From a virus, in the IMG/VR virus record IMGVR_UViG_3300025536_000006: DNA of 37,750 bases; one strand, 5' to 3'. Under the pieces are notes generated by a model. That model was not told the origin of the DNA. It worked only from the letters and a program-made list of their open reading frames with translations, and made no database searches. Position 1 is the stretch's first letter, and each line of letters starts with the position of its first letter. A program made the position numbers and the translations under genes. Of this stretch, positions 177 through 37,750 are shown piece by piece.

Positions 177-196
177 CTCTTCCTAGTTAAGAAAAA

Positions 197-214
197 CCCC
201 TCATCGTTGAGGGG
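197..214 (-). terminator. Intrinsic terminator for the leftward operon ending at 242
   Basis: CCCCTCA-tcgt-TGAGGGG hairpin. On the minus-strand RNA it is followed by UUUUUCUU (complement of 189-196). It lies 28 nt downstream of the stop of 242..454. Confidence 0.65.
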
Positions 215-241: not shown

Positions 242-454
242 TTACGCGGCGATACATTGCTCTTTGCGGGATTTCTTTTCACCTGTAATCATTCGGTTGG
301 TTAAGAGATCCCAGTCAGCGATAGGCTTGCTATAGGCGCTTGGAGTTTGAGAAAGAAGTTGGTCGGCTTTTTCCTCGGCTTCCAAGTAGCTATTCGCATC
401 TACGATCACTTTGTGCTCATAAGATTCACGCCATGTAACTTCAAATTTAGCCAT
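242..454 (-). CDS. Hypothetical protein (70 aa)
   Basis: ORF track. It is the last gene of the minus-strand block and is followed by a terminator hairpin. No recognisable motif. Confidence 0.6.
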   Translation of the reverse strand: MAKFEVTWRESYEHKVIVDANSYLEAEEKADQLLSQTPSAYSKPIADWDLLTNRMITGEKKSRKEQCIAA

Positions 455-7067: not shown

Positions 7068-7235
7068 ATGAAAGGTAAAGAAGTACGAAAGAAAAAAGTT
7101 GAAAAGGTCATGCATGAGATGAAAGAAGGTAAGCTCCATAGCGGATCTAAGAAAGGGCCCGTTGTCACTAATCCAAAACAAGCTATCGCCATAGCAATGA
7201 GCGAAAGCGGACAAGCAAAGAAGAAAAAAAAATGA
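7068..7235 (+). CDS. Small lysine-rich protein (55 aa), not in the ORF track
   Basis: MKGKEVRKKKVEKVMHEMKEGKLHSGSKKGPVVTNPKQAIAIAMSESGQAKKKKK. It resembles a widespread small basic bacterial protein family (DUF6496-like, from memory and unverified). Its stop overlaps the next ATG. Confidence 0.5.
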   Translation: MKGKEVRKKKVEKVMHEMKEGKLHSGSKKGPVVTNPKQAIAIAMSESGQAKKKKK

Positions 7236-7444
7236 GTTGGGAAATTTATTGTGTTCTTATCATTGGAGGTCTTGCCAGCTTCTTGTCATTGAGCTGGAAT
7301 TGGTCTTTGTCAAATAAATATATACAAATTTATAAAGACGTCACGCACGTGCAAAAAACCACGATTGAAATATTAAATATCATATTGGAGATGAAAAAAA
7401 ATAAAGAAAATATCGGAAAGGTGGAAAAAAAGAAAACGAAGTAG
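7232..7444 (+). CDS. Small membrane protein (70 aa)
   Basis: N-terminal TM helix (IYCVLIIGGLASFLSLSW), then WNWS, then a charged helical tail. The architecture resembles the GRLC family but lacks the GRLC motif. Confidence 0.5.
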   Translation: MSWEIYCVLIIGGLASFLSLSWNWSLSNKYIQIYKDVTHVQKTTIEILNIILEMKKNKENIGKVEKKKTK

Positions 7445-17993: not shown

Positions 17994-18025
17994 TCAGCGT
18001 AACATAAGATTCGCTATCTTAACCC
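17994..18025 (+). promoter_or_regulatory. Conserved box TCAGCGTAACA-N6-TCGCTATCTT, copy A (upstream of the capsid gene)
   Basis: A near-identical box occurs at 30865..30895 (TCAGCGTAACA-N5-TCGCTATCTT). It contains a -10-like TATCTT with no good -35. Both copies are followed by CTTAGGTTC(A/G)AA(T/C)ATG. Confidence 0.5.
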
Positions 18026-18115
18026 ATGGCAGACATATAGGGAATCGCCAACCTAGGCAGTAATTAGTTTTTTTCGCCAAAAACGCCAAAACTAAAACTT
18101 AACTTAGGTTCAAAT

Positions 18116-19072
18116 ATGTCATCTGGGATCACCAACATTAACAACATGGCTCCAGAGCTACCTTTGCAGCTTAGCGAAGATCTGCTCTCTACGCCCATGT
18201 TCAACCTCATTCACAGTTTCGGCGCGGATTTACATTATGCCGAATCACATATTGGGCGAAATATCCGTATGTCCCGATATGAAAGACTCTCCACAAATGG
18301 CGGCCAACTCGATGGTTCTGGTATTGATCCAGCTCCTGAAGTTGTCGTCCGTTCTGATATCGACGCTAAAGTTGAAATCTACGCCAAAACCGTAGTCATC
18401 AACGAGCAAGTTGTATTATGGGAAAACGACAAAGTTCTCACTAAATTCACAGCTCTTCTCGGGCAGTGGCTACGTGAGAAAGAAGATCTTCTGATGCGCG
18501 ATCTTTACGCTTCATCTGTGAGCTACATCAATGCCACAGGCGGGGTAAACGGGGATCAGCCAAGTGAAATTTCTCGTAATGACATCAACAACATTGAGCG
18601 TATCTTGCTTGGCAATGATGCACGCACAATGCTAGAAACCATCGAAGCTCAGAACAAATTCGGTACAGCGCCAACTCGCGATGCCTTCATTGCTCTTGCT
18701 TCGACTGATATCACTCCAGACCTTCAAAACGTTCAAGGCGTACTGCTCAAAAACGCATACCCAATGCAAGAAGGACTGAGACCAGAAGAATACTGTTCAG
18801 TAAGCCGCTTCCGATTCTTTGTCAGCTCAAAAGCTGCTAAGACACCAGGCGCATCTTTGACAGGAGCCACAGTCTATACAATTCCTATGTATGGGCTTGA
18901 AGCTGCAACAAAAGTTGAACAGAACAACTATAGCGCACTCTTAGGGTACAGACCTCCTTATGTTGTGTCTAGCGTTGCCCAAAACAGCCAATTGTATGCC
19001 AAGTTCGCGATCGGTCGAGCAATCACCAATCAGAACTGGATCTCTGGGCTTAACGTAACACAAAGACTGTAA
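18116..19072 (+). CDS. Major capsid protein (HK97 fold, resembling the N4-gp56-type family)
   Basis: GRNIRMSRYERL...GQLDGSGIDPAPE...IDAKVEIYAKTVVINEQV...LLGQWLREKEDLLMRDLY follows the remembered pattern for this capsid family. It lies after the scaffold gene. Confidence 0.8.
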   Translation: MSSGITNINNMAPELPLQLSEDLLSTPMFNLIHSFGADLHYAESHIGRNIRMSRYERLSTNGGQLDGSGIDPAPEVVVRSDIDAKVEIYAKTVVINEQVVLWENDKVLTKFTALLGQWLREKEDLLMRDLYASSVSYINATGGVNGDQPSEISRNDINNIERILLGNDARTMLETIEAQNKFGTAPTRDAFIALASTDITPDLQNVQGVLLKNAYPMQEGLRPEEYCSVSRFRFFVSSKAAKTPGASLTGATVYTIPMYGLEAATKVEQNNYSALLGYRPPYVVSSVAQNSQLYAKFAIGRAITNQNWISGLNVTQRL

Positions 19073-20999: not shown

Positions 21000-22277
21000 A
21001 TGACATTAGCTCCTGCAAATTCCACATATGCCTACATTGAAACCAAGGTAAGAAGGCTCACTGCGTCATCCAGTGAGCAATCTTTGCGCTCTGCATCGAT
21101 CCAGGAGTATGTCAATAATTTCTATAATCAGAATTTTCCCAATTCGATAAAGACCGACCAAATGCGGTCGGTCTATACGTTCTATACTGCACCAAACATC
21201 GATCGATATCCTGTAAATGTGAACTACAATCAGGGATTCCGCTCTCCTGTATATGTAGATGGCATTCAAGGTTCATTCTTTAAGGATAGAGATCAATTTT
21301 TCCTTATGTGGCCAAGATGGCCTACTCTATTTCAGCAATCTCCTACAACCCTTACAGGCTCTATCACGGCAGCTACAAATGCTAATCCATGTCAGATTAC
21401 GAGCGCAAACCATGGTTTGATTACGGGTAGCGTAATATCGATCACAGGTGTTGTAGGTATGATTCAGCTTAATGGCAATACATATACGATCACTGTAGTT
21501 GATGCAAATAATTTTACACTAAATGGGATTGATTCGACGGCTTTTGGTGTGTACATATCAGATGGAACTTGGACAGCCAATAATCAGTTTTTCTCTTTTA
21601 CAATCGGCTCAGTGCCATTCTTAAGCCAGCAAGTAACCATAGGCTCCGTTGATACAAACGGAGGGGCAATCAGAATCAGTGACGATGGTAATGGCAATCT
21701 TCTCTACGACGTTCCTAACCCCATTATTTCGGTTCCTCCAGCCCTTACAAATGTTCCAGGAATGAAAAATTTAAATACTGGAAATCCTGGCGATCTGGTT
21801 CAAACACTCATTGGCACTGTAAACTACGTAACGGGGCAATTTACCTTTACTCTTCCTTCAGGAGTATCAGTAGGGACTGGACAAATTCTACGCATTTTCG
21901 TCTCTCAGTATACGACTGGAAGACCTTATTCACTGCTTTTCTGGAATAATGAGATCACTATCCGACCAGTGCCTAAATGGACTCATAAGATTGAAGTTGA
22001 AACCTACCTTACTCCTGTTCAGTTCATGAGCTATTCTAATAATCCTATCATGAACCAATGGGCTAAATACATAGCCTATGGAGCCGCTATCGATATCTTG
22101 ACTGATAGACAAGACATGGATGGGGTCAATAATTTGATGGATGCCTTCAAGTATGAAGAAGGACTTGTTTTAGAAAGACAAGGCGCAGAAGAGATAGGAC
22201 AGAGGAATACCACCATCTTTTCGTCATCTGTACAGGGACAAGGAAATTATTGGGGAAGCTGGGGGAACTGGTATTAG
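21000..22277 (+). CDS. Virion structural protein with an inserted FCCH-like module (adaptor or tail tubular A candidate, by position only)
   Basis: GAGGGAAG RBS. The module ITAATNANPCQITSANHGLITGSVISITGVVGMIQLNGNTYTITVVDANNFTLNGIDSTAFGVY spans about aa 120-191. Confidence 0.5.
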   Translation: MTLAPANSTYAYIETKVRRLTASSSEQSLRSASIQEYVNNFYNQNFPNSIKTDQMRSVYTFYTAPNIDRYPVNVNYNQGFRSPVYVDGIQGSFFKDRDQFFLMWPRWPTLFQQSPTTLTGSITAATNANPCQITSANHGLITGSVISITGVVGMIQLNGNTYTITVVDANNFTLNGIDSTAFGVYISDGTWTANNQFFSFTIGSVPFLSQQVTIGSVDTNGGAIRISDDGNGNLLYDVPNPIISVPPALTNVPGMKNLNTGNPGDLVQTLIGTVNYVTGQFTFTLPSGVSVGTGQILRIFVSQYTTGRPYSLLFWNNEITIRPVPKWTHKIEVETYLTPVQFMSYSNNPIMNQWAKYIAYGAAIDILTDRQDMDGVNNLMDAFKYEEGLVLERQGAEEIGQRNTTIFSSSVQGQGNYWGSWGNWY

Positions 22278-24832
22278 TGTCATATAAACCGCTTTACATT
22301 CGCAAAATGGAGACGGGGCTTGTGCAAAGCAGGCAGGATTTCATCTTGCCTGATGATGCCTATCCTGTTTTAGAGAATGCTTATGTATGGCGTGAAAGAA
22401 TCAAAAGACGTCAGGGACTAGATCTTGTAGGAAGATTGCGTAGAGTCTTAACAGGGCTATCTCTTGGCCTTTCTGGGGCCGATCCTTGGACATTTACCAT
22501 CTGGTCAACTCTAGCACCTCCTATCGTTCCTGAAGCTACTGCTCAGATTGAGCCTGGAAGCGTAGTGATCGATATAGGAGGAGTTATACTAATCGATCAA
22601 GGTGATGGAACTTTAGCTACTGCTCCTCCTAGTGGGGTTACAGGGACTATAAACTATCAAACAGGTAGCGTGACAATTATGGGAGCTGGAGCTGGAGTGG
22701 CAACAACCATCAGCTTCAATTATTTCCCTGGCCTTCCTGTGATGGGGCTTCGTTCTAGAGAGCTGAATTCAATCAATATCGAGCAACTTATCGCCTTCGA
22801 TACGTTCTATGCCTACAGATTCGTAGGAACAGGTTGGCAAGAATTTATTCCAGGAACTACCTGGAGCGGGACATTACCTGATGCTGATTCGAATTTCTTC
22901 TGGTCTACAAACTATTGGGTGGGCGATGGTAACCAAAAGATATTTTGGGTCACGAACTTTTCAGGAATCACAGGCGATCCTATTCGCTATACCAACGGCA
23001 CTACCTGGATAAATTTTGCCCCTACGATCAATGCAGCAGGTGAGGTTCTAGCTCAATGTCTCGCCATGTTGCCATTTAGAGGAAGGCTTGTAACATTCAA
23101 TACATTGGAAGGCGCGAATTTAGCCACTTCCGTTGCTTATACCAATCGAATACGATGGGCAGCAATCGGAACGCCATTTAGCACACCAAGTGCGATTGTA
23201 ACGCCTGTAAATGCTAATGCATGGCGTGATGACATACGAGGACAAGGAGGATTTCTTGACATCCCGACTTCTGAAAGTATCGTTGCAGTTGGCTTCGTCC
23301 GTGATAATTTGGTTATTTACTGTGAGCGCAGTACTTGGCAGCTGCGTTATACTGGGCGCTCTATTGCTCCTTTCCAGATTGAAAAAGTTAATAGTGAGCT
23401 CGGCTCAGAAAGTACTTTCAGTGCTGTCCAGTTCGACACATCACTTATCGGAATAGGAGACAAAGGAGTTGTTGAATGCGACAGCTTCAAGTCTGAAAGG
23501 ATCGATATCAAGATTCCCGATCTTGTCTTTGAATTCAAAAATGAAAGCGAAGGAACAAAACGAGTCCATGGCATTAGAGATTTTCAAGAAAGACTTGCTT
23601 ATTGGACTTACGTTTACAATCCTGCATCGACTCCAGGTCAGAAGTTTCCCAACCGTCGATTAGTCTATAACTATGAGAATGACTCCTGGGCTATCTTTAC
23701 AGACTCTTTGACAGCATTAGGAACTTACCAAGAAGCCGTAGCGCGTACATGGATAACAGCCGATTCCACATGGAATAAAGCTAACTTTCCATGGCTAGAT
23801 GTTCCAGCTCAATTTCCTTTCATTGTAGGAGGAAATCAGCAAGGATACGTTCATAAACTTTCGTCTAATCTGTCTCCAAAAACTACTAATGATGTTACTC
23901 TTTTCATCACCAACATCGTAGGAGCTACCACTACGCCTACGATCGTCACAAGCCCTAACCATAATCTTGTGACGGGTCAGGTGATCACCATTCATGATTT
24001 ACCATCTACTGATCCTTATGCAGCTAGTCTAAACAGTCCTAGAACTGGTGCTATTACAGGAGCAACACAAGCCAACCCATGTCAGATCACAAGTACTAAC
24101 CATGGTCTTTTGACAGGTTCTAGAATCGATATCTCAGGTGTGACCGGAATGGTAGAACTCAATGGATTGAGCTATATCATTACGGTAACGGGCGTAAATA
24201 CATTTACTCTAGATGGCATTGACTCTACAAATTTCACTGCCTACGCAGGCGCTGGGACTTGGAGTTACACTAATGCTTTTGCCGTATTCATTGATCCTAC
24301 CAGCAGCCCTTTAGATACCTTCCAGCTTTGGAAGTATTCACCTGTTACACTCGATTTTACCATTCCTCAAACCGATGCTCCAGGAACATATCAAGGCGGA
24401 GGACAAATCGCCGTTAGAGACGGTTTTAGTATCGTTAGCAAGAAATTCAACTTCCTAGAGCAAGGGCAAAACATTCAATTAGGATATATAGATCTTTTGA
24501 CTGATACCACAGAAAGTGGGGCGATCACTCTCAATGTCTATCTCAACTACAATAACAGCAGCCCAGTCAATATTTTGCCAGAGAATGTTAACCCTGTAAC
24601 GTTTTTGCCAGATCCCTTTTTCAATACTACAGTCAATACGTTTCAAGGAGCAGGAATGCCTAGCATAAAGAATAACCAAAGAGTCTTTTGTTCAATGTGG
24701 GGGCATTTTGTCACCCTGCAATGGACTCTATCCAAGGCACAACTTATCAGCGTTGAGCAAGAATCAGACGTACAAATCGATTATCAAATTTTGTGGATAA
24801 GACCAGCAGGAACACAACTCAATAATATTTAG
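22277..24832 (+). CDS. Large tail protein, nozzle / tail tubular B-like (tentative)
   Basis: About 850 aa. The N terminus (KMETGLVQSRQDFILPDDA...ENAYVW...KRRQG) loosely parallels the T7 gp12 N terminus. It carries one full and one partial FCCH-like module. Possible starts are GTG 22277, TTG 22250 or ATG 22307. Confidence 0.45.
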   Translation: MSYKPLYIRKMETGLVQSRQDFILPDDAYPVLENAYVWRERIKRRQGLDLVGRLRRVLTGLSLGLSGADPWTFTIWSTLAPPIVPEATAQIEPGSVVIDIGGVILIDQGDGTLATAPPSGVTGTINYQTGSVTIMGAGAGVATTISFNYFPGLPVMGLRSRELNSINIEQLIAFDTFYAYRFVGTGWQEFIPGTTWSGTLPDADSNFFWSTNYWVGDGNQKIFWVTNFSGITGDPIRYTNGTTWINFAPTINAAGEVLAQCLAMLPFRGRLVTFNTLEGANLATSVAYTNRIRWAAIGTPFSTPSAIVTPVNANAWRDDIRGQGGFLDIPTSESIVAVGFVRDNLVIYCERSTWQLRYTGRSIAPFQIEKVNSELGSESTFSAVQFDTSLIGIGDKGVVECDSFKSERIDIKIPDLVFEFKNESEGTKRVHGIRDFQERLAYWTYVYNPASTPGQKFPNRRLVYNYENDSWAIFTDSLTALGTYQEAVARTWITADSTWNKANFPWLDVPAQFPFIVGGNQQGYVHKLSSNLSPKTTNDVTLFITNIVGATTTPTIVTSPNHNLVTGQVITIHDLPSTDPYAASLNSPRTGAITGATQANPCQITSTNHGLLTGSRIDISGVTGMVELNGLSYIITVTGVNTFTLDGIDSTNFTAYAGAGTWSYTNAFAVFIDPTSSPLDTFQLWKYSPVTLDFTIPQTDAPGTYQGGGQIAVRDGFSIVSKKFNFLEQGQNIQLGYIDLLTDTTESGAITLNVYLNYNNSSPVNILPENVNPVTFLPDPFFNTTVNTFQGAGMPSIKNNQRVFCSMWGHFVTLQWTLSKAQLISVEQESDVQIDYQILWIRPAGTQLNNI

Positions 24833-25916: not shown

Positions 25917-26537
25917 ATGGGACTTTTCAAAGAGATAGGTAAATTTTTCCGAGGAACTCCTGGGAAGTATCAACAAAGATCTACGCTAAATCCAGAGCAA
26001 CAAGGATTAGCCCAACAATATTACAACTCTATTCGTGGCCAAGGAGCAGGCGGAGCGTTTGGAGATGTTGCGGATTATTATCGCGGTAATTTGAGTGATA
26101 ACCCAGCCGATTTCCAAGCTTTTGCTGCTCCAGAAATGCGAAGGTTCAATGAGCAAATCATCCCTGGTCTTTCCGAACAATTTGCTGGGATGGGCTCAGG
26201 AGGTCTTTCAAGCAGTGGCTTTCGCAACGCAGCAGTTGGAGCAGGTACGGATCTTAGCGAGCGTCTTGGAGCGATTAGAGCGCAACTAAGACAGCAAAGT
26301 GCTCAAGGATTGCAAGGCTTCGCTCAAGGTGGCTTAAACCCATCATTCAATGAAAATCTTTATACAGCAGGACAGCCAGGTTTTATCGATACTGCTATGC
26401 AAGGACTGGGTCAGGCTGGCACAGGAGGCTTTGGAGGATTAGGCGGTTTCGTAGGAGGAGCAGCAAGCAATTGGTTGAAAAATAGACGAGCCAATACTTC
26501 ACAGATTTATGGCAATCAACAAGGTCAGGGAGGTTAA
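25917..26537 (+). CDS. Gly/Gln-rich protein (internal virion or ejection-protein candidate)
   Basis: Low-complexity G/Q/A-rich sequence (GQGAGGAFG, GMGSGGLSSSG, GTGGFGGLGGFVGG). It lies downstream of the tail genes. Confidence 0.4.
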   Translation: MGLFKEIGKFFRGTPGKYQQRSTLNPEQQGLAQQYYNSIRGQGAGGAFGDVADYYRGNLSDNPADFQAFAAPEMRRFNEQIIPGLSEQFAGMGSGGLSSSGFRNAAVGAGTDLSERLGAIRAQLRQQSAQGLQGFAQGGLNPSFNENLYTAGQPGFIDTAMQGLGQAGTGGFGGLGGFVGGAASNWLKNRRANTSQIYGNQQGQGG

Positions 26538-26538
26538 G

Positions 26539-27813
26539 GTGGTACAAATCATAAATGACCCATACGCCGGGAATGTATTCGGTCGTATAGGCAAAGGTCT
26601 CGGTCAAGGTTTAAGCGAGCAGCTTCCTAAAGAGGTAGAACGCACGAGACTTGCTTCTGGATTAAAGAAACTCAGTGAAAAATCTAAAACTGAAAAATTA
26701 TCTCCTTTAGATATATTTACGGAAGCGGCTGGACTTCCTGGTATTACTCCTCAACATCTTTATACGATGGCTCCAATACTTAATCAGCAAATACAAAAAC
26801 AAAATTTCTTAGCACGAGGCGAGCAAGGAGGAGCAGGATCTCCTAATATTGAGAAACCAAATCTAGGAACAGAAGGTCAAAATAGACATTCAGCATCAGG
26901 TGTTCCTAATCTAGCAGCTCCTGAAAGCGGTTTTGTAAGTCCCTCAGATATTGCTAATTATAAAGAAACCGTTTTGCAAGAACCTGGCTTCAATCAGATT
27001 AATTCATTAGCCAAAGATTATTTAGATCAGGGTATTACTCAAGATCCCCAAGAAGCAACTTCGTTAGCTGCGAAGGAATTGGCTCAAAATCGAGCAGCGC
27101 AAGCAACAAAAATTCAAGCCTTTAAGGATGATTTTGGAGGTGAAAATGGGCGATTTGCTTTACAATTGCAGTCGGGCCCGCTTGGTCAAAAAAGCTTTAA
27201 AGCTGTGGCCGGAGAGATCCAACAAGCTCTCTTAGATCAGGGAGAATATAGAGTTGGAGCATTAGGCATGAATCCTGCTGCGGTTGCTCTTGAAATGAGC
27301 AATATCGCTACAGAACTAGGGAAAACTGTAACTCAAACGAATGCAACCGGATCTTTTTGGAATCAATTTGCAAGTAAGCAATCAAAAATCACAGATCTGA
27401 GAGAACAAAAGAAGGAATTTGAAAAATATGGGTTTGGGGAGCAATTTAATGATATCGCATCAGCAGCTTTAGGGATTACGCCTCTAGAAGCTGCAAATAT
27501 ATTGTCTCCTCTAGAAAATAAGTCTATATCTGACATGATTGCAAAAACCAAGAAAATCTCTCAGAAATCAACGCAAAATAATATTGATACAACGACTTTA
27601 GACAAAATCATTCGATCGATCACACCTAAAGACAATCTTTTTTCGATCGAATATATGTTGAGAAATAAGCAACTAGATATTCAACAATTTAAGAAAAGAG
27701 TGCAGGAACTTGTAAATGCCAAGGAAATCGCTCTTACGCCAGAACAAAAAAGACAAATGAAAAGAACCGTAAGTGAATCATTTCTTGGTGATTTATTATT
27801 TGAAGCACTTTAA
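26539..27813 (+). CDS. Internal virion protein candidate (about 424 aa)
   Basis: GTG 26539 follows GGGAGG by 6 nt. The track start, ATG 26509, would overlap the upstream gene by 29 nt. No enzymatic motif recognised. Confidence 0.4.
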   Translation: MVQIINDPYAGNVFGRIGKGLGQGLSEQLPKEVERTRLASGLKKLSEKSKTEKLSPLDIFTEAAGLPGITPQHLYTMAPILNQQIQKQNFLARGEQGGAGSPNIEKPNLGTEGQNRHSASGVPNLAAPESGFVSPSDIANYKETVLQEPGFNQINSLAKDYLDQGITQDPQEATSLAAKELAQNRAAQATKIQAFKDDFGGENGRFALQLQSGPLGQKSFKAVAGEIQQALLDQGEYRVGALGMNPAAVALEMSNIATELGKTVTQTNATGSFWNQFASKQSKITDLREQKKEFEKYGFGEQFNDIASAALGITPLEAANILSPLENKSISDMIAKTKKISQKSTQNNIDTTTLDKIIRSITPKDNLFSIEYMLRNKQLDIQQFKKRVQELVNAKEIALTPEQKRQMKRTVSESFLGDLLFEAL

Positions 27814-27822
27814 GGAGAAAAT

Positions 27823-28395
27823 ATGGCTTCTGCTATTTTTGGAGTTTTAAAATATTTGCCAGCTTCTTTGGCTAGGAAAGCTCTTGCGAAAGCAAACCCT
27901 GGTTTTGAGAATTATTTCTCTAAAGCTTTGAGTTATGGAGTAGATGCTAATCGCGCATTGGATTATCTCATTGATAAATTTGAAAACAGTGCTCAAAAAG
28001 ATTTTAAACAACAGCAAGAATCTAGAGCTGCCGAAGGAACATTAAGACCTGACGAAATGGCAACTAGAAGTCAGGTGGCAAATGCGGCTATTCCAGGAAA
28101 AATATTGAAAGGAGGAGCATCTGCACTTTTAGGAGGAGCATTAGGAATAGGCTCTGAAAGAAGGCCATCCCAAGAACAAGAACCTACATTAACCGATGAA
28201 GAAAAAAGACAAGCTACTCTCCAAGCATTTAATGAAAGATTACGTTCTAAAAAACCTAAATCTGAACTTTCTAGAGAAGAATTGACCCGTCAATTCGAAG
28301 AATCTCAACAAGGCGGTCAAGGTAAAGCAGCTTTACTGTCGACCATGCAGCAGCTTACCGAAGCGCTAAGGCAAATGAGAGGCCAAGGTGGATGA
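27823..28395 (+). CDS. Hypothetical virion-module protein (190 aa)
   Basis: ORF track with an AAGGAG RBS. Charged and helical. Confidence 0.5.
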   Translation: MASAIFGVLKYLPASLARKALAKANPGFENYFSKALSYGVDANRALDYLIDKFENSAQKDFKQQQESRAAEGTLRPDEMATRSQVANAAIPGKILKGGASALLGGALGIGSERRPSQEQEPTLTDEEKRQATLQAFNERLRSKKPKSELSREELTRQFEESQQGGQGKAALLSTMQQLTEALRQMRGQGG

Positions 28396-29029
28396 ACTTC
28401 TGCGATTGCTTATTCAATTCATAGATCAAATCGAAGGATCATTCGATGAATTGGATGATGCGGAAGCTCAAGAAGTAGCTAACTTCTTAACCGAAACCAT
28501 GAACTTTCTCATGGAAGGTCAAGCAGGTCAAGAACCTGCTCAAGGAGAGCCGCAAGTTGAAGCTCCAATACCTGTAGGAGCCGAACTACTTTGGATTCTA
28601 GCTGGCGGCCAAGAAGATGCCTTTGTCAATTATCTTCGTACTTATCCAGACCCTGCTCTCAACTCTATCTTGCAGAATCCAGAGATGCTCCAATCAACAT
28701 TGGATCGTCTCAATAGGACAATGCCTCAAGGTCTCAGAGGTCAAGAAGGAGGCATTCAACAAGCGCCTATCGATTCGAGTAACATCTACGGATTCAACTA
28801 CAATCCAAAGAGCGGCTCACTCCTAGTCCGATTCCAATCAGGAGCTGTTTATGGATATCAAGGCGTTCCACCTGGAGTTTTCCGCGTGTTTCAACAAGGC
28901 GCAATTCCCGCGAAGACAAAAGGCGAGAATCGTTTTGGAAAGTGGTGGCAAGGTAAGATTCCATCACTGGGGGCGGCCTTTTATGAATTGATTCGTCAAG
29001 GTGGCTATCCGTATCAACGCATTTCATAA
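28388..29029 (+). CDS. KTSC-domain protein (213 aa)
   Basis: IDSSNIYGFNYNPKSGSLLVRFQSGAVYGYQGVPPGVFRVFQQG matches the KTSC domain pattern (S.I..v.Y.....L.V.F..G..Y.Y..VP..v...). Confidence 0.65.
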   Translation: MDELLRLLIQFIDQIEGSFDELDDAEAQEVANFLTETMNFLMEGQAGQEPAQGEPQVEAPIPVGAELLWILAGGQEDAFVNYLRTYPDPALNSILQNPEMLQSTLDRLNRTMPQGLRGQEGGIQQAPIDSSNIYGFNYNPKSGSLLVRFQSGAVYGYQGVPPGVFRVFQQGAIPAKTKGENRFGKWWQGKIPSLGAAFYELIRQGGYPYQRIS

Positions 29030-29370: not shown

Positions 29371-29434
29371 GAGGGACACTCCAATAAATTCCCCAAGATA
29401 AGATCAAGATACATAAAATAATAGGCCAGATCAT
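29360..29434 (-). CDS. Tiny hydrophobic peptide (24 aa), tentative
   Basis: MIWPIILCILILSWGIYWSVPHGK. AAGGAG RBS. Its start overlaps the upstream stop (ATGA). Confidence 0.3.
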   Translation of the reverse strand: MIWPIILCILILSWGIYWSVPHGK

Positions 29435-29592
29435 TTCTTACTCCTTTCCTCTAATGTGCAAAGTCTGCCATTGATTTCGCTCAAGTCTTTATGGATTCCA
29501 TCTATTTTTGATCCAAGATAAAACATAGGGGCCAACATTAACCCAATAAATGTTGCTATGCCGCCGATAAATCCTACGATTTCGAGAGCCAT
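29431..29592 (-). CDS. Small single-pass membrane protein, divergent GRLC-motif family member (53 aa), not in the ORF track
   Basis: Codon-by-codon manual translation: MALEIVGFIGGIATFIGLMLAPMFYLGSKIDGIHKDLSEINGRLCTLEERSKK. Confidence 0.65.
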   Translation of the reverse strand: MALEIVGFIGGIATFIGLMLAPMFYLGSKIDGIHKDLSEINGRLCTLEERSKK

Positions 29593-29600
29593 TGTCCAGT

Positions 29601-29786
29601 TCATTTTCTACTCTCTTCAATGGCGCAAAGTCTACCGTGGAAGTCCTTCATTTCGGTTTCTATTGCTCGCAGGATCACCATTGTTTCTGCTCTTAATTCT
29701 CGATTATCTGAACGTGATTCTGATCTGTTCCAAAAAAATAAGCCCGCAAAAGTCACGATCAAAATTAGAAATTGTGTCCATTCCAT
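29601..29786 (-). CDS. Small single-pass membrane protein, GRLC-motif family (61 aa)
   Basis: MEWTQFLILIVTFAGLFFWNRSESRSDNRE...MKDFHGRLCAIEESRK. Confidence 0.8.
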   Translation of the reverse strand: MEWTQFLILIVTFAGLFFWNRSESRSDNRELRAETMVILRAIETEMKDFHGRLCAIEESRK

Positions 29787-29835: not shown

Positions 29836-30255
29836 TCAATCTCTTTCCTTCGCTTCATCTTCTTGCGTTTTTTCTTGTGAAAGAAATTCCTGAATCTTTT
29901 GAATATCTACTAGTTCTTTTTCTAATTCTATAAAATGTTTTTTAAGATTCCATGCAAGGTTTTCAATTTCTTCTATTTGCATTTTCACATTGGCCAAACT
30001 GTACGGAATTTTGCTAATTCTTTCCTTCATCTTGGTCTCATCAGCCAAACAAAGTCCTCTTTCATTTAAAAATAATCTAATTTCAAATAATGATCTTTTG
30101 CCAAAATTCCTTTCCTTCATTAATTCAGAAGAAGTCCATTTTATTAAATCATTAATCGTAAGGATATTAATTCTCCTTAAACAGTTCTCTGTTCTAGCAG
30201 AAAAATTTGCATCTCTTATTTTTAAATCAAGAATCGTTATGATTTTTTCAGTCAT
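29836..30255 (-). CDS. RNA polymerase alpha-subunit C-terminal-domain (alpha-CTD)-like protein with a C-terminal coiled coil
   Basis: ANFSARTENCLRRINILTINDLIKWTSSELMKERNFGKRSLFEIRLFLNERGLCL aligns with E. coli alpha-CTD [55 protein letters not shown]. The R-x-x-N-C and G-K-K/R-S motifs are retained. Confidence 0.8.
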   Translation of the reverse strand: MTEKIITILDLKIRDANFSARTENCLRRINILTINDLIKWTSSELMKERNFGKRSLFEIRLFLNERGLCLADETKMKERISKIPYSLANVKMQIEEIENLAWNLKKHFIELEKELVDIQKIQEFLSQEKTQEDEAKERD

Positions 30256-30502
30256 TTTTCTCCCTTTTTTGTGAATTTCTCATAGGATGATTTTTAAATT
30301 TCTCCTTCATCCTTTCACATGTTTTGTCGAAAAATTCATCAGAATAATTTGCCATTGCCATAGTCCCAACAAAAGAAATCTTTAAAAAAGCTAAAACGGC
30401 AGATCTGCTCCAACCATTTGCGATGGCAAAGACAAGAATTAGTCTATGTAATTCATCAATTTCTTCTTGAGAAGGATATTTCTTCATTTTTTCTCCCAAC
30501 AA
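30248..30502 (-). CDS. Hypothetical helical protein (84 aa)
   Basis: ORF track. It overlaps both neighbours. Confidence 0.5.
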   Translation of the reverse strand: MLGEKMKKYPSQEEIDELHRLILVFAIANGWSRSAVLAFLKISFVGTMAMANYSDEFFDKTCERMKEKFKNHPMRNSQKREKND

Positions 30503-30759
30503 GGAAACACAGCGATATCATCATGACCACATTCTTCACATTTACCGATCATAGCCATTTGAGTCCCTTTCAAATTCCATTTGCCACAAGCTTCACAAAG
30601 ACGAATACATGTAGAGCGTTTATCCTTCAACTTATTCTCTATGACATGGGCTAGCCATTCTTGGATGCTCTTACCTTCTTTATAGGCTTGCAATTTTGCT
30701 CTGCGATGAAGGTCTCCATCTATCCGAATAGCTAAATATTTTTCTGTTATCTTCTGCAT
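30484..30759 (-). CDS. Ribbon-helix-helix (CopG/Arc-like) regulator with a C-terminal zinc ribbon
   Basis: LAIRIDGDLHRRAKLQAYKEGKSIQEWLAHVIENKL looks like an RHH. CEACG...CEECG forms the ribbon. First gene of the leftward operon. Confidence 0.55.
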   Translation of the reverse strand: MQKITEKYLAIRIDGDLHRRAKLQAYKEGKSIQEWLAHVIENKLKDKRSTCIRLCEACGKWNLKGTQMAMIGKCEECGHDDIAVFPCWEKK

Positions 30760-30805: not shown

Positions 30806-30864
30806 TCCTGGCAATATGGATTAATTTTTCGTAGCAATCTAAAACTTTATTTTGTACATTGGGC

Positions 30865-30895
30865 TCAGCGTAACAAGAAGTCGCTATCTTGATCC
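30865..30895 (+). promoter_or_regulatory. Conserved box TCAGCGTAACA-N5-TCGCTATCTT, copy B (upstream of the fibre gene)
   Basis: It matches 17994..18025 apart from the spacer (1-nt indel) and the flanks. The same CTTAGGTTCGAACTATG initiation context precedes 30962. Confidence 0.5.
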
Positions 30896-30961
30896 TGTAG
30901 GCTGTAGCTACGTTCGCCTTCGTAACAATTTTAGTCTGAAATTTTTACTTAGGTTCGAACT

Positions 30962-33337
30962 ATGACATCAAATTCAATGGGTCAAAACCCACTCGGATAT
31001 ACAGGCATCAACTTCTTTCAAAACCCTGTCCTCATCACTGCTAATCGTGCTCCTACAACTAATGACATTTATCCTATCGGAACTCGATGGTCTGATGGCT
31101 CTGTAAATCCACCTGTTATCTATGAAACTACTGGTAACGGCATCTGGGATGTTGGAGCAAACCCAGTAGCAACAACAACCTCAACAGGTATAGTTGAACT
31201 TGCTACTTATGCAGAACTCTCTACAGGAACAGCTCCTGCCGCATACTATGTTGGCACAGCTAATGACGTTTTCACCTATATCAATTCCGTAGCCGTAGCC
31301 GGAGCCCCTATTGCTCAAACAGGCGTTACAGGGATTACCAACCTAGCTACAGATGCGCAGGCCGTAGCAGGAACAGCAACAGTCCCTGGGGTCACGGCTC
31401 TTGCAGTACAACCATCTAACCTCGCTGCGGTATTTGCAGCTCCTCCAGCAATCGGTGGTACAACTCCAGCTGCTGGGTCATTTACTGCGGTTATTGGTAC
31501 AACAGCTAATTTCTCAGGTCTCATCACAGGCACTGCAAGCGCAACCATCACTACTGGCGCAACAGCTCTTAACCTGGCCTCTGATGCTTCAACTGGTGCA
31601 GTAAATATCGGTACTGGAGCCGGTGCACGTGTAATTACCATTGGTAACGTTACAGGCGCAACGGCGGTAGCTATCAATACAGGTACAGGATCATTTGCGG
31701 TTGCAACAACAGGCGCAGGGGACATCACCTTAACATCTGCCGATACCGTCCTTATCGATGGCGCAGGCGTTGTTGAGATTAATTCCTCGGCTGGCGTGAT
31801 CTCAATTGGCAATGATGCCGTAGCTCAAAATATTAATATTGGTACAGGTGCCGCCGCACGAGTAATTACTTTGGGTAACTCTACAGGCGCCACACAAGTC
31901 GTTCTTAATGGTGGAACAGCAGGGATCTCAGTCGGAGCCAACGCAATTGCACAACCGATCGTCATCGGTAATCAGACTGGTGCAACCAGCGTTACCGTTG
32001 ATTCGGGTACAGGAGCAATCAATATCGGTACTGCGATTGCCAAAACAATCACCATTGGTAATGCTACTGGAGCGACTGCGGTTAACATCACAGCAGGTAC
32101 AGGCGGTTCAACCTATACGACTACAAACGGAACGTTCTCGTTGGTGACTGGTACGGGAGCTATTAATATTGGAGCTGATGCCGCCGCACATACAATTACC
32201 ATTGGTAACTCTACAGGTGCTACATCAGTTGTTGTAAACTGTGGTACAGGCGCTCTTAACATTGGTACGAACGCCATTGCTCACACAGTGACTATCGGTA
32301 ACGTTACTGGTGCCACAGCCGTAAACGTCAATTCGGGCACAGGTGCTTGCGCTTGGACGACAACTAATGGTTCATTCGGCCTGGTGACTGGTACCGGAGC
32401 TATTAACCTTGGGGCTGATGCCGCCGCGAAAACGATTACCATTGGTAATATCACTGGCGCGACTGCCGTCAACGTGAACTCAGGAACTGGGGCATGTGCT
32501 TGGACAACCACAAACGGTAGCTTTGGCTTAGTTACAGGTACAGGTGCAATCAACATCGGGGCTGATGCCGCCGCCAAGACTATAACAATTGGTAACCAAA
32601 CGGGCGCTACAAGTGTTGTAATCGATGCAGGTACAGGTGCATTGAACATTGGTACAGCAATTGCTAAGACCATCACTATCGGTAACATCACAGGCGCAAC
32701 AGCCGTGAATATCAATACCGGAACTGGTGGCTCTACATATACCACTACTAATGGCACATTTGGACTTGTTACTGGAACAGGCGCAATCAACATCGGAGCT
32801 GATGCCGCTGCCAAAACGATTACTATCGGTAACGTGACAGGAGCAACCGCCGTTAATGTCAACTCTGGTAGCGGAGCATGTGCTTGGACTACAACCAATG
32901 GAAGTTTTGGGATTGTCACAGGAACAGGCGCGATCAATATCGGAGCTGATGCCGCTGCTAAGACTATTACAATCGGTAATACAACTGGTGCTACTGCGGT
33001 CAATATTACAGCAGGATCAGGTGCTGTAAACTGTGCTACAGACTTTAACTTGACATCAGTTGCAACTAAGATCTCGATGAATGGCGGTGCAGTAACCGAC
33101 TTCATCGGCAGAGCTACTCTTGTTGCTGGAACTGTAACCGTGGCTAATACCAACATCGCAGCAGGTGATAGGATCTTCGTAACAAGATCAGCCTTGAATG
33201 GCTCGCCAGCATTGGGATTCCCGATCACTACTATCAGCGCAGGCGCAAGCTTCACCATCGCAGCTTATAGCGCAGCTGGTGCTGCCGTAGCTACAGACGT
33301 CTCCACATTTGACTATCTGATTGTCCGGCAGACCTAG
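30962..33337 (+). CDS. Repetitive fibre / receptor-binding-type protein (791 aa)
   Basis: The N terminus carries the tail-fibre-like motifs TGIVELATYAELSTGT and GITNLATDAQAVAGT. Eleven copies of I-T-I-G-N-x-T-G-A-T-x-V follow, then a non-repetitive C-terminal domain. Confidence 0.7.
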   Translation: MTSNSMGQNPLGYTGINFFQNPVLITANRAPTTNDIYPIGTRWSDGSVNPPVIYETTGNGIWDVGANPVATTTSTGIVELATYAELSTGTAPAAYYVGTANDVFTYINSVAVAGAPIAQTGVTGITNLATDAQAVAGTATVPGVTALAVQPSNLAAVFAAPPAIGGTTPAAGSFTAVIGTTANFSGLITGTASATITTGATALNLASDASTGAVNIGTGAGARVITIGNVTGATAVAINTGTGSFAVATTGAGDITLTSADTVLIDGAGVVEINSSAGVISIGNDAVAQNINIGTGAAARVITLGNSTGATQVVLNGGTAGISVGANAIAQPIVIGNQTGATSVTVDSGTGAINIGTAIAKTITIGNATGATAVNITAGTGGSTYTTTNGTFSLVTGTGAINIGADAAAHTITIGNSTGATSVVVNCGTGALNIGTNAIAHTVTIGNVTGATAVNVNSGTGACAWTTTNGSFGLVTGTGAINLGADAAAKTITIGNITGATAVNVNSGTGACAWTTTNGSFGLVTGTGAINIGADAAAKTITIGNQTGATSVVIDAGTGALNIGTAIAKTITIGNITGATAVNINTGTGGSTYTTTNGTFGLVTGTGAINIGADAAAKTITIGNVTGATAVNVNSGSGACAWTTTNGSFGIVTGTGAINIGADAAAKTITIGNTTGATAVNITAGSGAVNCATDFNLTSVATKISMNGGAVTDFIGRATLVAGTVTVANTNIAAGDRIFVTRSALNGSPALGFPITTISAGASFTIAAYSAAGAAVATDVSTFDYLIVRQT
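31600..33030 (+). repeat. In-frame coding tandem repeats (alternating 49-aa and about 79-80-aa units)
   Basis: The landmark GG(A/G)GCTGATGCCGC recurs at 32171, 32411, 32558, 32795 and 32942, with spacings of 240, 147, 237 and 147 nt. The peptide is nearly identical between units, while third codon positions differ. Confidence 0.85.
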
Positions 33338-33392: not shown

Positions 33393-34010
33393 ATGCACGG
33401 AATATCAGAGTGCGAGACATGTGGGCAAAAATATAAGTGGAGAAGATGCAATAAGGGTAAACCGCCTAGATTTTGCTCTTTTAAATGCAGGAGTTGGAAG
33501 GGTTTAAAGGGTAGGACAAAAAATTCTGAACTATCAGAAGAAGCCAATCTTGCTAGAATAAAAAAAAATTATGAAAAGAATGTTGTTAAACAGGAAGGCT
33601 GCTGGGATTGGAAGGGATGTGTAGTTCGAGGGTATGCAATATTAGGAATTCGTCCTTATCTTAAAGCTCATAGAGCCTCATGGATAGTACATAATGGGCC
33701 GATTCCAAAAGGGGTTCTTGTTTGTCATACTTGTGACAACACAAAATGTACAAATCCAGAGCACTTGTGGCTTGGAACATATAAAGAAAATACACAAGAC
33801 AAAATAAAGAAAGGCAGATCAAATACTCCTAATGGAAGCCAACTAAAAGTAGCTAAATTAACTGAAGAACAAGTTGAAAAAATAAAGTTTATGCTGAATG
33901 ATAAAATACAAGGCAGTGAAATCGCTAGGATGTTTGGAGTTTCACCGAAAGTGATATCTCGCATAAAGCATAATGAAACATGGAAGCATGTTGAGGTAAT
34001 TAATGGCTAA
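33393..34010 (+). CDS. HNH homing-type endonuclease with a C-terminal HTH
   Basis: VCHTCDNTKCTNPEHLWLGTYKENTQD is an HNH_3-type core. There is an N-terminal CETCG...FCSFKCR knuckle and a C-terminal IARMFGVSPKVISRIKHNETW helix-turn-helix. Confidence 0.8.
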   Translation: MHGISECETCGQKYKWRRCNKGKPPRFCSFKCRSWKGLKGRTKNSELSEEANLARIKKNYEKNVVKQEGCWDWKGCVVRGYAILGIRPYLKAHRASWIVHNGPIPKGVLVCHTCDNTKCTNPEHLWLGTYKENTQDKIKKGRSNTPNGSQLKVAKLTEEQVEKIKFMLNDKIQGSEIARMFGVSPKVISRIKHNETWKHVEVING

Positions 34011-35039: not shown

Positions 35040-35591
35040 ATGAGTCAATTTTTTAGAGATCCTTCTGCAAGTCCTCCTCCTCCTGGATCAGTTGTAGAAT
35101 TTACTGGTGATACCGGTACAAATCCCGTACCTCCAGATGGCTCAGGCAATGTAAATTTATTTGAAGATCCTACAGCGCCAGGCATAATAACCCGAGGTAA
35201 TATAGCCACAAACACAGTGTTCTTTGGCTTAGCTCAACCCACAACCTGTGGTACAGGACAAACGATCAATACCGGCACAGCGGATCTTGTAACATTGTCG
35301 CTCGGTGCTTCTGCTGCTACCTATACTTTGAATGCAAATGTGGCAGGAAAAGCAGCAACCCAATCAGGTGTTGGGGGCACATCTTTTGCAGTTGTACGTA
35401 CAGATGGAGCGACAGCAACATTAATCGATATTAGCGACGATGTCATCAACAGTGATTTAGTGTTAGCAGGTGCGTCATTTACTTTCGTTGCCTCGGGCAA
35501 TGATGTTATTTTGAGGGCTACGGGCTCTCTTGGAACAGTAATCAATTGGAACGGCTGCGTTACATATGTATCCGTTGTAGCAGGTATATAA
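35040..35591 (+). CDS. Tail-fibre-associated protein (183 aa)
   Basis: The FTGDTGTNPVPPDGSGNVNL motif recalls N-terminal segments of phage fibre proteins. It lies directly upstream of the tailspike gene. Confidence 0.45.
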   Translation: MSQFFRDPSASPPPPGSVVEFTGDTGTNPVPPDGSGNVNLFEDPTAPGIITRGNIATNTVFFGLAQPTTCGTGQTINTGTADLVTLSLGASAATYTLNANVAGKAATQSGVGGTSFAVVRTDGATATLIDISDDVINSDLVLAGASFTFVASGNDVILRATGSLGTVINWNGCVTYVSVVAGI

Positions 35592-37288
35592 TGGCTGGTA
35601 TAAAAAACGATGTCTTGTACGGCTTGAATGCTGATTTTTCAAGAGCAGGAGCACATACTGCTTCCGAATCCAATGGTCTAGTCGTTGATGCCGATCTTTG
35701 GATAGGCTCTACTGCATTGAACGCTGGCGGAACTCATATTAATAAAGGCACTCTTACTTCACCCAACAGCTCAATCACTTTTGGGTATTCTTCTCCAAAC
35801 ATCACAGCGGTAGTAAATACAGCCGTAATCACCGATCTTCACACAGCGAGATTCATCGTAAGTGCTGGGGGTCTTACAGACGGTGCGAATTATACCTCAA
35901 TTCAAACGGCTATCAATGCAGCGGCAGGAGCCGGAGGCAATCAGACAGTCTTTATCCAGCCAGGGACATATACAGAGAATCTAACGCTGGCAGCAGGCGT
36001 GAATCTATGTGCATATGGGCCGAGTTCTATGTTTAATCAAAACACAGGAACAATTCCCAATGTAGTTATTAAAGGAACATGTACTTTTACATCAGCAGGA
36101 ATAGTCGGCATACAAGGAATTTGTCTTGAAACAAATAGTGCTGCGGCTCTAGCAGTTACAGGATCGTCGGCTTCTCAAGTAATTTTAGATAAATGTTATT
36201 TGAATTGCACTGACAATACTGGAGTCACTTTTTCTTCATCTTCATCATCTAGTCTCATTGAGTTTTTATATTGCTCGGGAGATATCGCTACAACTGGAAT
36301 TGCACTTTTTGCTCATAGTGGGGCAGGACAATTAAGAACTCTTTATACATTTTTTTTAAATTCAGGCCTATCTACTACTGCAAATACTGTCTCAGGCACA
36401 GGATTTTTTGGCCCCAATTACAGCTCTTTTGCCAATGGTATTTCTTTATCTAACTCAGCTTCAGGAAATGGTGGACAAAATAACTATCATATGGCTGCAG
36501 CACAAGTTTGCATTACAACAGCAAATACTGCTAGCTACTCTGAAGAGATGGGTCTATTTGTTGCCGGCGCATCAAAAGCAATTAGTATTGGCGCAGGATC
36601 TGCAGTAGCTCTTTATACATGTTTTGTTAGTGGTTCTGTAAGTGCAGTCATTGATGGCACAGGAACGCTTACATATACCAATCTGACTATGAATTCAAAT
36701 GCTACAATCAATTCAGGATTGACTATTTCCAATGGAGCATCAAATACATATATTTCTGGACAAGGCGCAGGTACAGCAGGCCAGGTTTTAACATCTAATG
36801 GCGCATATGCACCTCAGACTTGGCAAACGCCTTCGGGAGGAAAATTAGTACAACAAGTCAGAGTAAATAAAACGGCAGCCCAAACCGTAACATCATCAAT
36901 AACAGCAATTACCACCCAACCCACTACTTCAACTGGCACATCCGTTGTGAGTGTTAGCATCACGCCAACTAATGCAAGCAATATATTATTGATTGAAGGA
37001 AATCTAGTATGTACAAGCGGGGGTAACTTTGTTTCTGCCTATATCATACAAAACTCAGCAGGCAATGGGTTTGGTACAGCGTGGCAAAGTGGTTCAGCCG
37101 CCAACCTTCCGATGACTATCCCTATCAGATATTACATGACAGCGGGGGGAACATCGGCTATTACTTTTGATCTGTATACCACTGTTCAATCTGGTGGGAA
37201 CGTATACGTAAACGCTAATACTTCCGGAACTCAGCTATCGGGCGGCAGTGCGTTTACTAGTCTTGTAATCTCTGAGATTCAAGTCTAG
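35591..37288 (+). CDS. Tailspike with a right-handed beta-helix (pectin-lyase-fold-like); possible depolymerase
   Basis: ANYTSIQTAINAAAGAGGNQTVFIQPGTYTENLTLAAGVNLCAYG is typical of the start of a parallel beta-helix. The start is moved to the ATG at 35591 (TAATG coupling). Confidence 0.6.
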   Translation: MAGIKNDVLYGLNADFSRAGAHTASESNGLVVDADLWIGSTALNAGGTHINKGTLTSPNSSITFGYSSPNITAVVNTAVITDLHTARFIVSAGGLTDGANYTSIQTAINAAAGAGGNQTVFIQPGTYTENLTLAAGVNLCAYGPSSMFNQNTGTIPNVVIKGTCTFTSAGIVGIQGICLETNSAAALAVTGSSASQVILDKCYLNCTDNTGVTFSSSSSSSLIEFLYCSGDIATTGIALFAHSGAGQLRTLYTFFLNSGLSTTANTVSGTGFFGPNYSSFANGISLSNSASGNGGQNNYHMAAAQVCITTANTASYSEEMGLFVAGASKAISIGAGSAVALYTCFVSGSVSAVIDGTGTLTYTNLTMNSNATINSGLTISNGASNTYISGQGAGTAGQVLTSNGAYAPQTWQTPSGGKLVQQVRVNKTAAQTVTSSITAITTQPTTSTGTSVVSVSITPTNASNILLIEGNLVCTSGGNFVSAYIIQNSAGNGFGTAWQSGSAANLPMTIPIRYYMTAGGTSAITFDLYTTVQSGGNVYVNANTSGTQLSGGSAFTSLVISEIQV

Positions 37289-37592: not shown

Positions 37593-37750
37593 CTACCTTC
37601 TTTTCTCTTCGATTTTACACAGTCTGCTATGAAAATCTTTAACCTCGTCATGTATCGCCCTAACCAATTCACGAGTCGATTCCAATTTAGAATCCATATG
37701 ACGAATATCAGATCGTGACTCCGATCTATTCCATAAAAATAGCGGTATGA
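37593..37750 (-). CDS. 3' part of the junction-spanning GRLC-family gene (same gene as 1..176)
   Basis: Reverse translation ends ...DFHSRLCKIEEKRR, with the stop codon (TAG) at 37593-37595. The full gene is 207 nt (68 aa) on the circular molecule. Confidence 0.8.
   Translation of the reverse strand, partial: IPLFLWNRSESRSDIRHMDSKLESTRELVRAIHDEVKDFHSRLCKIEEKRR
37624..37750. repeat. Terminal direct repeat, copy 2
   Basis: Identical to nt 1-127. Confidence 0.95.

Follow-up and report, generated by a model that had tools for sequence, protein, structure and literature searches.

The virus record IMGVR_UViG_3300025536_000006 of IMG/VR, a stretch of 37,750 nucleotides that was analysed at its full length (the window) and is the genome of an uncultured tailed phage, a podovirus, encodes five members, and possibly a sixth, of a family of tiny proteins that cross the membrane once and whose C-terminal tail, (E)MKDFHxRLCxIEE, is near-invariant. 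The copies constitute one genuine paralogous family, which is very large, restricted to phages and undescribed, and the data support a constrained motif within an accessory gene complement. With respect to function, a role of the proteins in the inner membrane of the infected cell, most likely in superinfection exclusion, is put forward tentatively.

That the copies belong together is apparent from a hidden Markov model (HMM) built from 117 external homologues, no window sequences being included, against which the five copies score between 131 and 20.6 bits (Table 1), while the best among 200 composition-matched shuffles per sequence reached 5.9-8.8 bits. Even the divergent copy at 29431 stands above its own shuffle maximum of 5.9 bits. 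In pairwise comparisons under composition control, named beforehand as a test of the family, the three long copies match one another with BLASTP E-values of 4e-16 to 3e-18, and any pair that includes a short copy gives a value of 3e-6 to 5e-3. The predicted transmembrane (TM) helix is likewise found, with a best 17-residue Kyte-Doolittle average of 1.8-2.5 in four copies and a borderline 1.18 in the 4762 copy. The paralogous family claimed by the original prediction, a first reading of the nucleotide sequence alone, is thus borne out.

All five genes are real and translated in frame, a Shine-Dalgarno-like purine-rich sequence is situated upstream of each, and their products have the common architecture described in that first reading; M1, R-L-C and E-E are invariant across the five. 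Four of the genes have the coordinates originally given, while the start of the fifth, the 29431 copy, is more likely at 29604 (MNWT...) than at 29592, as the former provides a family-typical N-terminus and an ATGA overlap with the stop codon of the upstream copy. One copy extends across the ends of the record. The 127 bp at the start of the window are exactly repeated at its end, with 37624-37750 duplicating 1-127, so that the genome is 37,623 bp in length and circular or terminally redundant; the N-terminal part of the junction copy encodes MDTGTVLALILGNAALIIPLFLWNRSESRSDIRHMD, the gene then runs across the genome junction and its 3' part ends with VKDFHSRLCKIEEKRR and the stop codon, giving a single open reading frame on the circularised genome.

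The junction copy is the last gene of a leftward RecT operon, the 4762 copy comes after the DnaC/IstB-like gene of the replication operon, which runs rightward, and the 29431 and 29601 copies are located after the RHH and alpha-CTD genes in another leftward operon. Copies in this genome seem to be appended to leftward and rightward non-structural operons. The boundaries between functional modules at which the copies had been placed, between scaffold and capsid, between virion and fibre genes and across the genome junction, are all correct. A protein identical to the 17736 copy is found in a public collection (P0001).

Further small genes resemble the family to different degrees. A distant 70-residue protein encoded at 7232..7444 scores 14.3 bits against a shuffle maximum of 4.7, yet its hhalign probability is just 4.6%; judged from its sequence, it possibly belongs to the family as a remote member. 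For two genes at the distal end of the operon with the 29431 and 29601 copies, a sequence relationship to the family was undetectable by HMM and hhalign despite a family-like architecture, and homologues of the 29224 protein occur alongside family genes in the arrays of related phages.

Table 1. Family copies and other features of the window (bits refer to the external HMM)
Feature	Position	Strand	Description
Junction copy, 68 aa	1..176 joined to 37593..37750	-	131 bits; start codon 176-174
17736 copy, 68 aa	17736..17942	-	108 bits; alone and antisense in the scaffold/major capsid gap inside the virion module
29601 copy, 61 aa	29601..29786	-	85 bits; leftward operon in the gap between ejection-protein block and fibre
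29431 copy, divergent, 57 aa	29431..29604	-	20.6 bits; ...EINGRLCTLEERSKK; glycine-zipper pattern in TM helix
4762 copy, short-linker subtype, 57 aa	4762..4935	+	30.4 bits; tail extension ...LEERYLQMMQRILEKK
Candidate sixth member, distant, 70 aa	7232..7444	+	MSWE, TM helix, WNWS and helix; no DFHxRLC motif
Small gene, TM plus charged helix	29224..29379	-	distal end of operon with 29431 and 29601 copies
Small gene, TM plus charged helix	29024..29227	-	distal end of operon with 29431 and 29601 copies
RHH (Arc/HicB-like) regulator	30484..30759	-	PHROG HicB-like 1.4e-5, Arc-like 1.6e-3
84-aa protein of unknown function	30248..30502	-	promoter-proximal part of the operon holding two family copies
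RNA polymerase alpha-CTD-like protein, 139 aa	29836..30255	-	N-terminal PF03118, E 3.7e-16
Putative ejection-protein genes	25917-29029	+	assigned by position and composition
HNH endonuclease gene	7448-7951	-	free-standing; assigned by eye
HNH endonuclease gene	13141-13824	+	free-standing; assigned by eye
HNH endonuclease gene	33393-34010	+	free-standing; assigned by eye
Terminator-like hairpin	189..214	-	CCCCTCA-acga-TGAGGGG then TTTTTCTT; read from sequence

Conservation within the family resides in the protein. The paralogues are 51-61% identical at the nucleotide level, and about half of their identical residues are encoded by different codons. In a set of 147 different family genes taken from related contigs, the codons used within the motif follow the background at each position: Leu is encoded by all six of its codons, TGT and TGC occur 61 and 51 times, and AGA makes up 41% of the Arg codons as compared with 43% in the background. 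As judged from these codon statistics, strong purifying selection at the protein level on the C-terminal motif is supported. A stretch of about 30 nt within the shared WNRSESR box had been reported as conserved in the DNA of three copies; such a box exists and covers 38 nt (76-113, 17842-17879 and 29698-29735; 76-82% identical), while its nucleotide conservation is a by-product of residue conservation and codon bias. A role of the box at the DNA or RNA level was rejected on the basis of the overall nucleotide identity, the differing codons and scans of the window for tRNA and Rfam families, which gave no match.

The architecture of the proteins was assessed by hydropathy and charge counts over 269 family members. 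The segment preceding the TM helix, with a median of 5 residues, is acidic (0.31 K+R, 1.15 D+E), as compared with 3.13 K+R in the 15 residues that follow the helix. Under the positive-inside rule such a charge bias predicts an N-out/C-in topology, in which the inner membrane would carry the post-membrane helix and the His/Cys motif on its cytoplasmic side. The TM helix often contains a central Asn (..LGNAA..) or a GxxxG/glycine-zipper pattern and is followed by a basic juxtamembrane box, WNRSESRxDxRH in the long subtypes, and by an amphipathic or coiled-coil helix with a sharp hydrophobic periodicity of 3.5-3.6 residues. The linker between the TM helix and the motif ranges from a few to approximately 100 residues and consists sometimes of internal repeats. 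An AlphaFold2 model of the 61-residue 29601 copy, based on an alignment of 48 sequences, shows one continuous helix from residue 2 to 60 with a mean predicted local distance difference test score of 93.5. Foldseek searches with this monomer found no match in PDB and BFVD, as is expected for the shape of a single long helix.

The conservation profile peaks in the last 17 residues, with the near-invariant consensus A-I-x-x-E-M-K-D-F-H-x-R-L-C-x-I-E-E (conservation in per cent: A68 I88 x x E90 M65 K89 D97 F100 H99 G71 R96 L98 C94 A55 I84 E97 E88). The Cys of the motif, described originally as invariant, is present in all five copies, but is not universal across the family, as it is found in 247 of 269 members, in 220 of them as the sole Cys; relatives devoid of it have endings such as ...DFHGRLERQDAEFK... 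and ...RLTRIEDRLEF. Disulfide-linked oligomers, which had been considered on account of this Cys, are unlikely, as the predicted topology places it in the reducing cytoplasm. If the tail is cytoplasmic, the His and Cys at positions i and i+4, flanked by Asp and Glu, would more plausibly form a metal- or partner-binding site, and the polar and small-residue motifs of the TM helix together with the heptad pattern suggest that the proteins may form homo-oligomers or hetero-oligomers among co-encoded subtypes.

Two interpretations concern the TM helix and the C-terminal motif. In the first, the TM helix would serve as a membrane tether for a C-terminal motif that recruits a cytoplasmic factor of phage or host involved in replication, partition, division or proteolysis, a logic comparable to that of phi29 p16.7 or of small regulators of membrane enzymes. 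The freely varying TM helix and linker (50-147 aa in total length, repeated linkers) next to last 17 residues that are 84-100% conserved at most positions are consistent with this interpretation, as are the lack of domain fusions and the location of copies in replication and recombination operons of this genome; on the other hand, components of replication or assembly are not usually accessory and mobile. Such tethers are regarded as rather unlikely. In the second, which is given a similarly small chance, the family would represent a new class of phage membrane effectors whose co-encoded subtypes form hetero-oligomers. The TM helices and the coiled coils in the cytoplasm would provide the contacts, and a metal or redox site made of the His and Cys of the DFHxRLCxIEE motif would staple the chains together; the assembly would either gate the inner membrane, from its cytoplasmic side, against the DNA of incoming phages or be the sole lysis device of the lineage. 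The latter option is conceivable, given that neither the genome nor the frequent neighbours of the family in relatives include a recognised endolysin or holin.

With respect to distribution, a profile search for the family gave 4,870 clusters at 90% identity, and the exhaustive profile search 790 clusters at 50% identity. The listed members have 50-147 residues and are not fused to other domains, the longest contig with a family member among the 120 best matches listed comprises 41,950 bp, and in IMG/VR 142 stretches match. None of the five copies has a significant match in Pfam, PHROGs or NCBIfam, nor have 146 diverse members in Pfam, and searches of PADLOC, PDB sequences, PDB and BFVD structures by Foldseek and GenBank phages gave no significant match to the family. 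The original prediction, which did not recognise the motif as any named holin, spanin or exclusion family, is in agreement with these searches, and a literature search with the motif string found no paper.

The genomic neighbourhood was compared in 87 loci retrieved via the family itself and in 80 relatives retrieved independently via a tail protein, with up to 20 kb covered per contig. Each of the 87 loci has 1-5 copies within 20 kb or less, and different subtypes often stand in tandem. The commonest site is the gap between the putative ejection block and the fibre gene, antisense to both, which is the site of 29431-29786 in the present genome, and other copies are located between scaffold and capsid genes (in either orientation), between ParB and TerS and between portal and TerL. 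Subtypes are conserved between genomes, as the 4762 type with a ...LEERYLQMMQRxLE tail is also found in relatives such as loci L058, L023, L064 and L079. Among the relatives retrieved via the tail protein, a copy is present in just 7 of 26 portal-to-fibre spans; the pre-fibre slot measures from 17 nt, when empty, to 1.9 kb and the gap between scaffold and major capsid protein (MCP) 147-1,244 nt, with the MCP being 87-91% identical. Occupied slots also hold other small genes for proteins with a TM helix and a coiled coil, one family of which ends with ...TDRLYEMFIDLVKERK (arrays for example at L016:1187-2020, L030:8220-8393, L059:9558-9767 and L067:516-1298).

The variable copy number, position and orientation, together with the empty slots, indicate accessory, moron-like cargo. 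The genes are present or absent in relatives, lie between conserved genes and are often on the opposite strand, as is typical for morons, and the family can therefore be understood as cargo in hypervariable slots of a highly conserved structural module. The view that strong selection maintains five copies is not supported, as copy number and position are fluid in relatives and slots are sometimes empty.

A small serine recombinase of the resolvase/invertase type, assigned by eye, is encoded within 2.5 kb of family genes in 13 loci, and HNH genes of relatives use the same kinds of intergenic slots of the virion module as the small membrane-protein genes. The sharing of slots with HNH genes, the occurrence of both orientations at one site and the variable copy number would also be compatible with selfish or near-neutral mobile mini-genes, which spread between slots, perhaps alongside HNH genes, to no benefit of the phage. 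Extreme purifying selection on the 17-residue motif over the 790 clusters with free synonymous change, the recurrence of conserved subtypes between genomes and the lack of a nuclease or recombinase domain make this the least credible explanation, with a very slight chance of being correct.

The leading, if still doubtful, functional proposal is that the members form oligomers in the inner membrane and act as accessory factors in superinfection exclusion or in a takeover of the envelope; they would protect or condition the cell, be it infected or lysogenic, with exclusion as the likeliest mode. The proteins would be made during infection, or from an episomal prophage, and would alter the inner membrane to the advantage of the phage; exclusion could proceed by interference with the conduit through which related phages eject their DNA on entry, at the end that lies in the inner membrane or the cytoplasm. 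Exclusion is proposed because SieA, which has the same role, fills the equivalent slot in phage P22, where the genes are ordered 7, 20 and 16 on the plus strand, sieA, orf59a and mnt on the minus strand, arc and ant, and the tailspike gene 9 on the plus strand. In the present genome too, ejection-type genes on the plus strand are followed by small TM genes up to the RHH gene on the minus strand and by the fibre gene on the plus strand, so that copies of the family lie, as SieA does, antisense between ejection genes and the tailspike or fibre gene, in a leftward cassette with an RHH regulator at its head in both phages. Both are phage-encoded proteins of the inner membrane, a location that is predicted for the family, and the portal is of the P22 type. 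SieA has 162-164 residues and three TM helices, and escape mutations to SieA exclusion map to the ejection proteins gp16 and gp20 (PMC10883804). The family proteins, in contrast, have 57-68 residues and one TM helix, are encoded in multiple copies and occupy other sites as well. A sequence relationship to SieA was rejected (hhalign probability 0.14%); the likeness is one of position and presumed function, an analogy and not membership.

Several points weigh against exclusion. Its assignment is drawn from gene position and gene class, with no sequence similarity to SieA at the above hhalign probability and one TM helix in approximately 60 residues as compared with three. An exclusion protein engaged in an arms race should vary at its interaction surface, while the putative motif is near-invariant, and a motif that is cytoplasmic, if the topology predicted by the positive-inside rule holds, could not reach the periplasmic parts of the ejection conduit. 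Lysogeny is hypothetical, and the window contains no recognised integrase. Furthermore, the genome lacks both a recognised holin and a recognised endolysin, which leaves room for a role in lysis, and in several relatives copies are situated between ParB and TerS on the late strand, a position of the lysis cassette in lambdoid phages.

These latter observations lead to the main rival of exclusion, namely holin/antiholin lysis timers, in which TM proteins oligomerise and permeabilise the inner membrane at a set time, with the charged C-terminus tuning the timing and the paralogues acting as holin and antiholin partners. Single-TM holins and antiholins (class III-like, BhlA/UviB-type) are similarly small, with one TM helix, a charged tail, TM oligomerisation motifs and paired or multiple copies; the family shares the highly charged basic C-terminal end and the Asn or glycine-zipper of the TM helix, the placement between ParB and TerS corresponds to the head of a late operon, and neither another holin nor an endolysin or spanin was recognised in the genome. 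Weak matches to the PHROG holin families phrog_16918 (E 0.002) and phrog_9233 (E 0.015) were found for one copy each; they are, however, non-significant and not common to the copies, Pfam holin families are not among the 25 most-matched for the 146 diverse members, none of which has a Pfam holin match, and hhalign against an approximate sequence of SPbeta BhlA gave 19%. In contrast to holins, the family is accessory and dispersed and conserved in its soluble tail, not in the TM helix. Variable number and location and empty slots are unexpected for an essential lysis gene, and three copies in this genome are carried by non-structural operons with RecT, DnaC and RHH/alpha-CTD genes. An endolysin gene does not adjoin any copy, here or in relatives, and is not among the frequent neighbours of the family in the 87 loci, which argues against a core role in lysis. 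Lysis timing is considered unlikely, though it deserves more weight than the other alternatives.

The i-spanins of the Rz family resemble the present proteins in their TM helix at the N-terminus and in the subsequent coiled-coil helix, which holds a conserved Cys, and a lipoprotein gene is found near the 4762 copy only. However, Rz is oriented N-in/C-out, while N-out/C-in is predicted for the family, and with 57-68 residues as compared with approximately 130-150 the family proteins have less than half of the length needed to span the periplasm. At the other copies no embedded or adjacent o-spanin was found, and a relationship to Rz was rejected as hhalign to P22 gp15 gave 0.8%. The lipoprotein in question, whose gene (5138-5314, plus strand) belongs to the early rightward operon and begins approximately 200 nt after the 4762 copy, has 58 residues and the lipobox LTGC; it has no family match in Pfam and PADLOC and could be a candidate exclusion lipoprotein or an o-spanin-like protein.

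A further similarity is seen to PspB (PF06667, approximately 74 aa), which at the level of architecture has the same size of about 60-75 residues, an N-terminal TM helix with the N-terminus outside and a cytoplasmic leucine-zipper-like heptad helix. The juxtamembrane strings, P-I-W-L-W-L-H-Y-S-N-R-S-G-R-S in PspB and P-L-F-L-W-N-R-S-E-S-R-S in the family, are alike, and hhalign gave a probability of 87.8% with the single Escherichia coli sequence and of 49% with an alignment, a signal above those of P22 Rz and SieA. This signal is, though, within the range of segment-shuffled PspB, which reaches up to 56% with a 95th percentile of 12%, so that it corresponds only to about the top 1-2% of chance. 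As distant homologues or mimics of PspB, the proteins would engage the membrane-stress machinery of the host and, in the course of infection, preserve or manipulate the proton-motive force. Against this stand the negative searches with PF06667 and the NCBIfam PspB model for the five copies, with PF06667 also being outside the 25 Pfam families most matched by the 146 members, the DFHxRLC motif, which has no counterpart in PspB, and the context, as PspB is encoded by a single-copy chromosomal gene in the psp operon and not by a multi-copy phage gene, and neither pspA nor pspC is present in the window. Modulation of envelope stress appears improbable, and superinfection exclusion is retained as the working proposal.

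Regarding expression of the copies, scans for promoters and terminators in their surroundings gave nothing beyond the shuffled expectation. The terminator-like hairpin listed in Table 1, a strong one, separates the junction copy, whose ribosome-binding site is immediately downstream, from a 70-residue gene at 242..454; the junction copy may hence depend on read-through transcription. A block of about 32 nt, reading AAGATAGCGAnTTCTTnTGTTACGCTGAsC on the minus strand, is common to 17992-18023 and 30863-30893, upstream of the MCP and first fibre genes, and a near-identical leader, ACTTAGGTTCnAAnT, is found at 18095-18118 and 30941-30964, just 5' of the ATG codons of MCP and fibre. Block and leader are probably, on sequence grounds, a duplicated late promoter with its leader. 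Both upstream regions are arranged back-to-back with minus-strand units carrying family copies; assignment of the block to the 17736 copy or the RHH operon was rejected, a connection with MCP and fibre, the late genes that diverge from these units and share the leader, being more probable.

The genome has a G+C content of 41% and nothing similar to it was found among GenBank phages. Besides the portal, a large terminase was recognised, the capsid protein bears the JGI name 'N4-gp56 family', and genes of replication and recombination encode a lambda-O-like replication protein, a DnaC/IstB-like ATPase and a RecT-like protein. DUF551 and DUF1064 proteins and, assigned by eye only, a ParB-like protein are also encoded. 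Pfam and PHROG scans of the proteins recognised no endolysin, holin, spanin or integrase in the complete 37.6-kb genome. The alpha-CTD-like gene is located directly upstream of two family copies, and its product may be a candidate factor for the takeover of transcription. Among the virion genes, the adjacent large proteins encoded at 21000-22277 and 22250-24832 contain an E1_FCCH-like beta-barrel domain each (PF16190, E ~5e-11 to 7e-11), and the first fibre gene, at 30962-33337, comprises approximately 10 tandem coding repeats spaced by 147 and 93 nt, which encode sequences of the type (A/T)ITIGNxTGATAVN.

The ribosome-binding sites, the lipobox lipoprotein and the alpha-CTD indicate a bacterial host. 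Bin labels of metagenome-assembled genomes (MAGs) with family matches are contradictory, naming Scalindua, Bacteroidaceae, Chlamydiae (twice), Kosmotogaceae and Nitrososphaeraceae; of five matches in genome collections, two are in Chlamydiae MAGs and one in a Scalindua MAG. The nearest cultured relatives of the terminase, Streptomyces phages with approximately 41% identity, are uninformative on the host. At the C-terminus of the second fibre protein (35546-37288), residues 460-578 weakly resemble PF05475, the domain that ends Pgp3, a protein of the Chlamydia plasmid, with an E-value of 5.6e-5 and 23.4 bits, below the cut-off of 25, and searches of PDB and plasmids gave no support for such a fibre tip. 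The Chlamydiae and Scalindua MAGs and the Pgp3-like tip provide a weak hint at a host of the PVC group. Among the 120 best matches listed, homologues of the capsid protein are found on no contig longer than approximately 42 kb. This limit, which applies to the listed matches of both the family and the capsid protein, and the lack of a recognised integrase suggest that the phage is virulent or episomal; its genes include one for a ParB-like protein.

Cumulatively, thousands of distinct metagenomic sequences fall into one family of small proteins with no match in Pfam, PHROGs, NCBIfam, PADLOC, PDB or the literature searched. Small membrane proteins are often overlooked by gene callers, and two of the copies in this genome had been missing from the initial list of open reading frames; such proteins are at the same time an increasing source of mechanisms of phage-host interaction, as in exclusion, control of lysis and regulation of membrane enzymes. 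The family is new within the already known class of small membrane accessory proteins of phages, and should the host prove to be a PVC bacterium, it would also contribute to the first account of a group of tailed phages that infect such bacteria. A near-invariant 17-residue motif on a variable scaffold, with several subtypes per genome that are mobile between hypervariable slots, offers a handle for study, and definition of the family would permit better annotation of a widespread lineage of uncultured podoviruses and provide candidates for exclusion or lysis functions.

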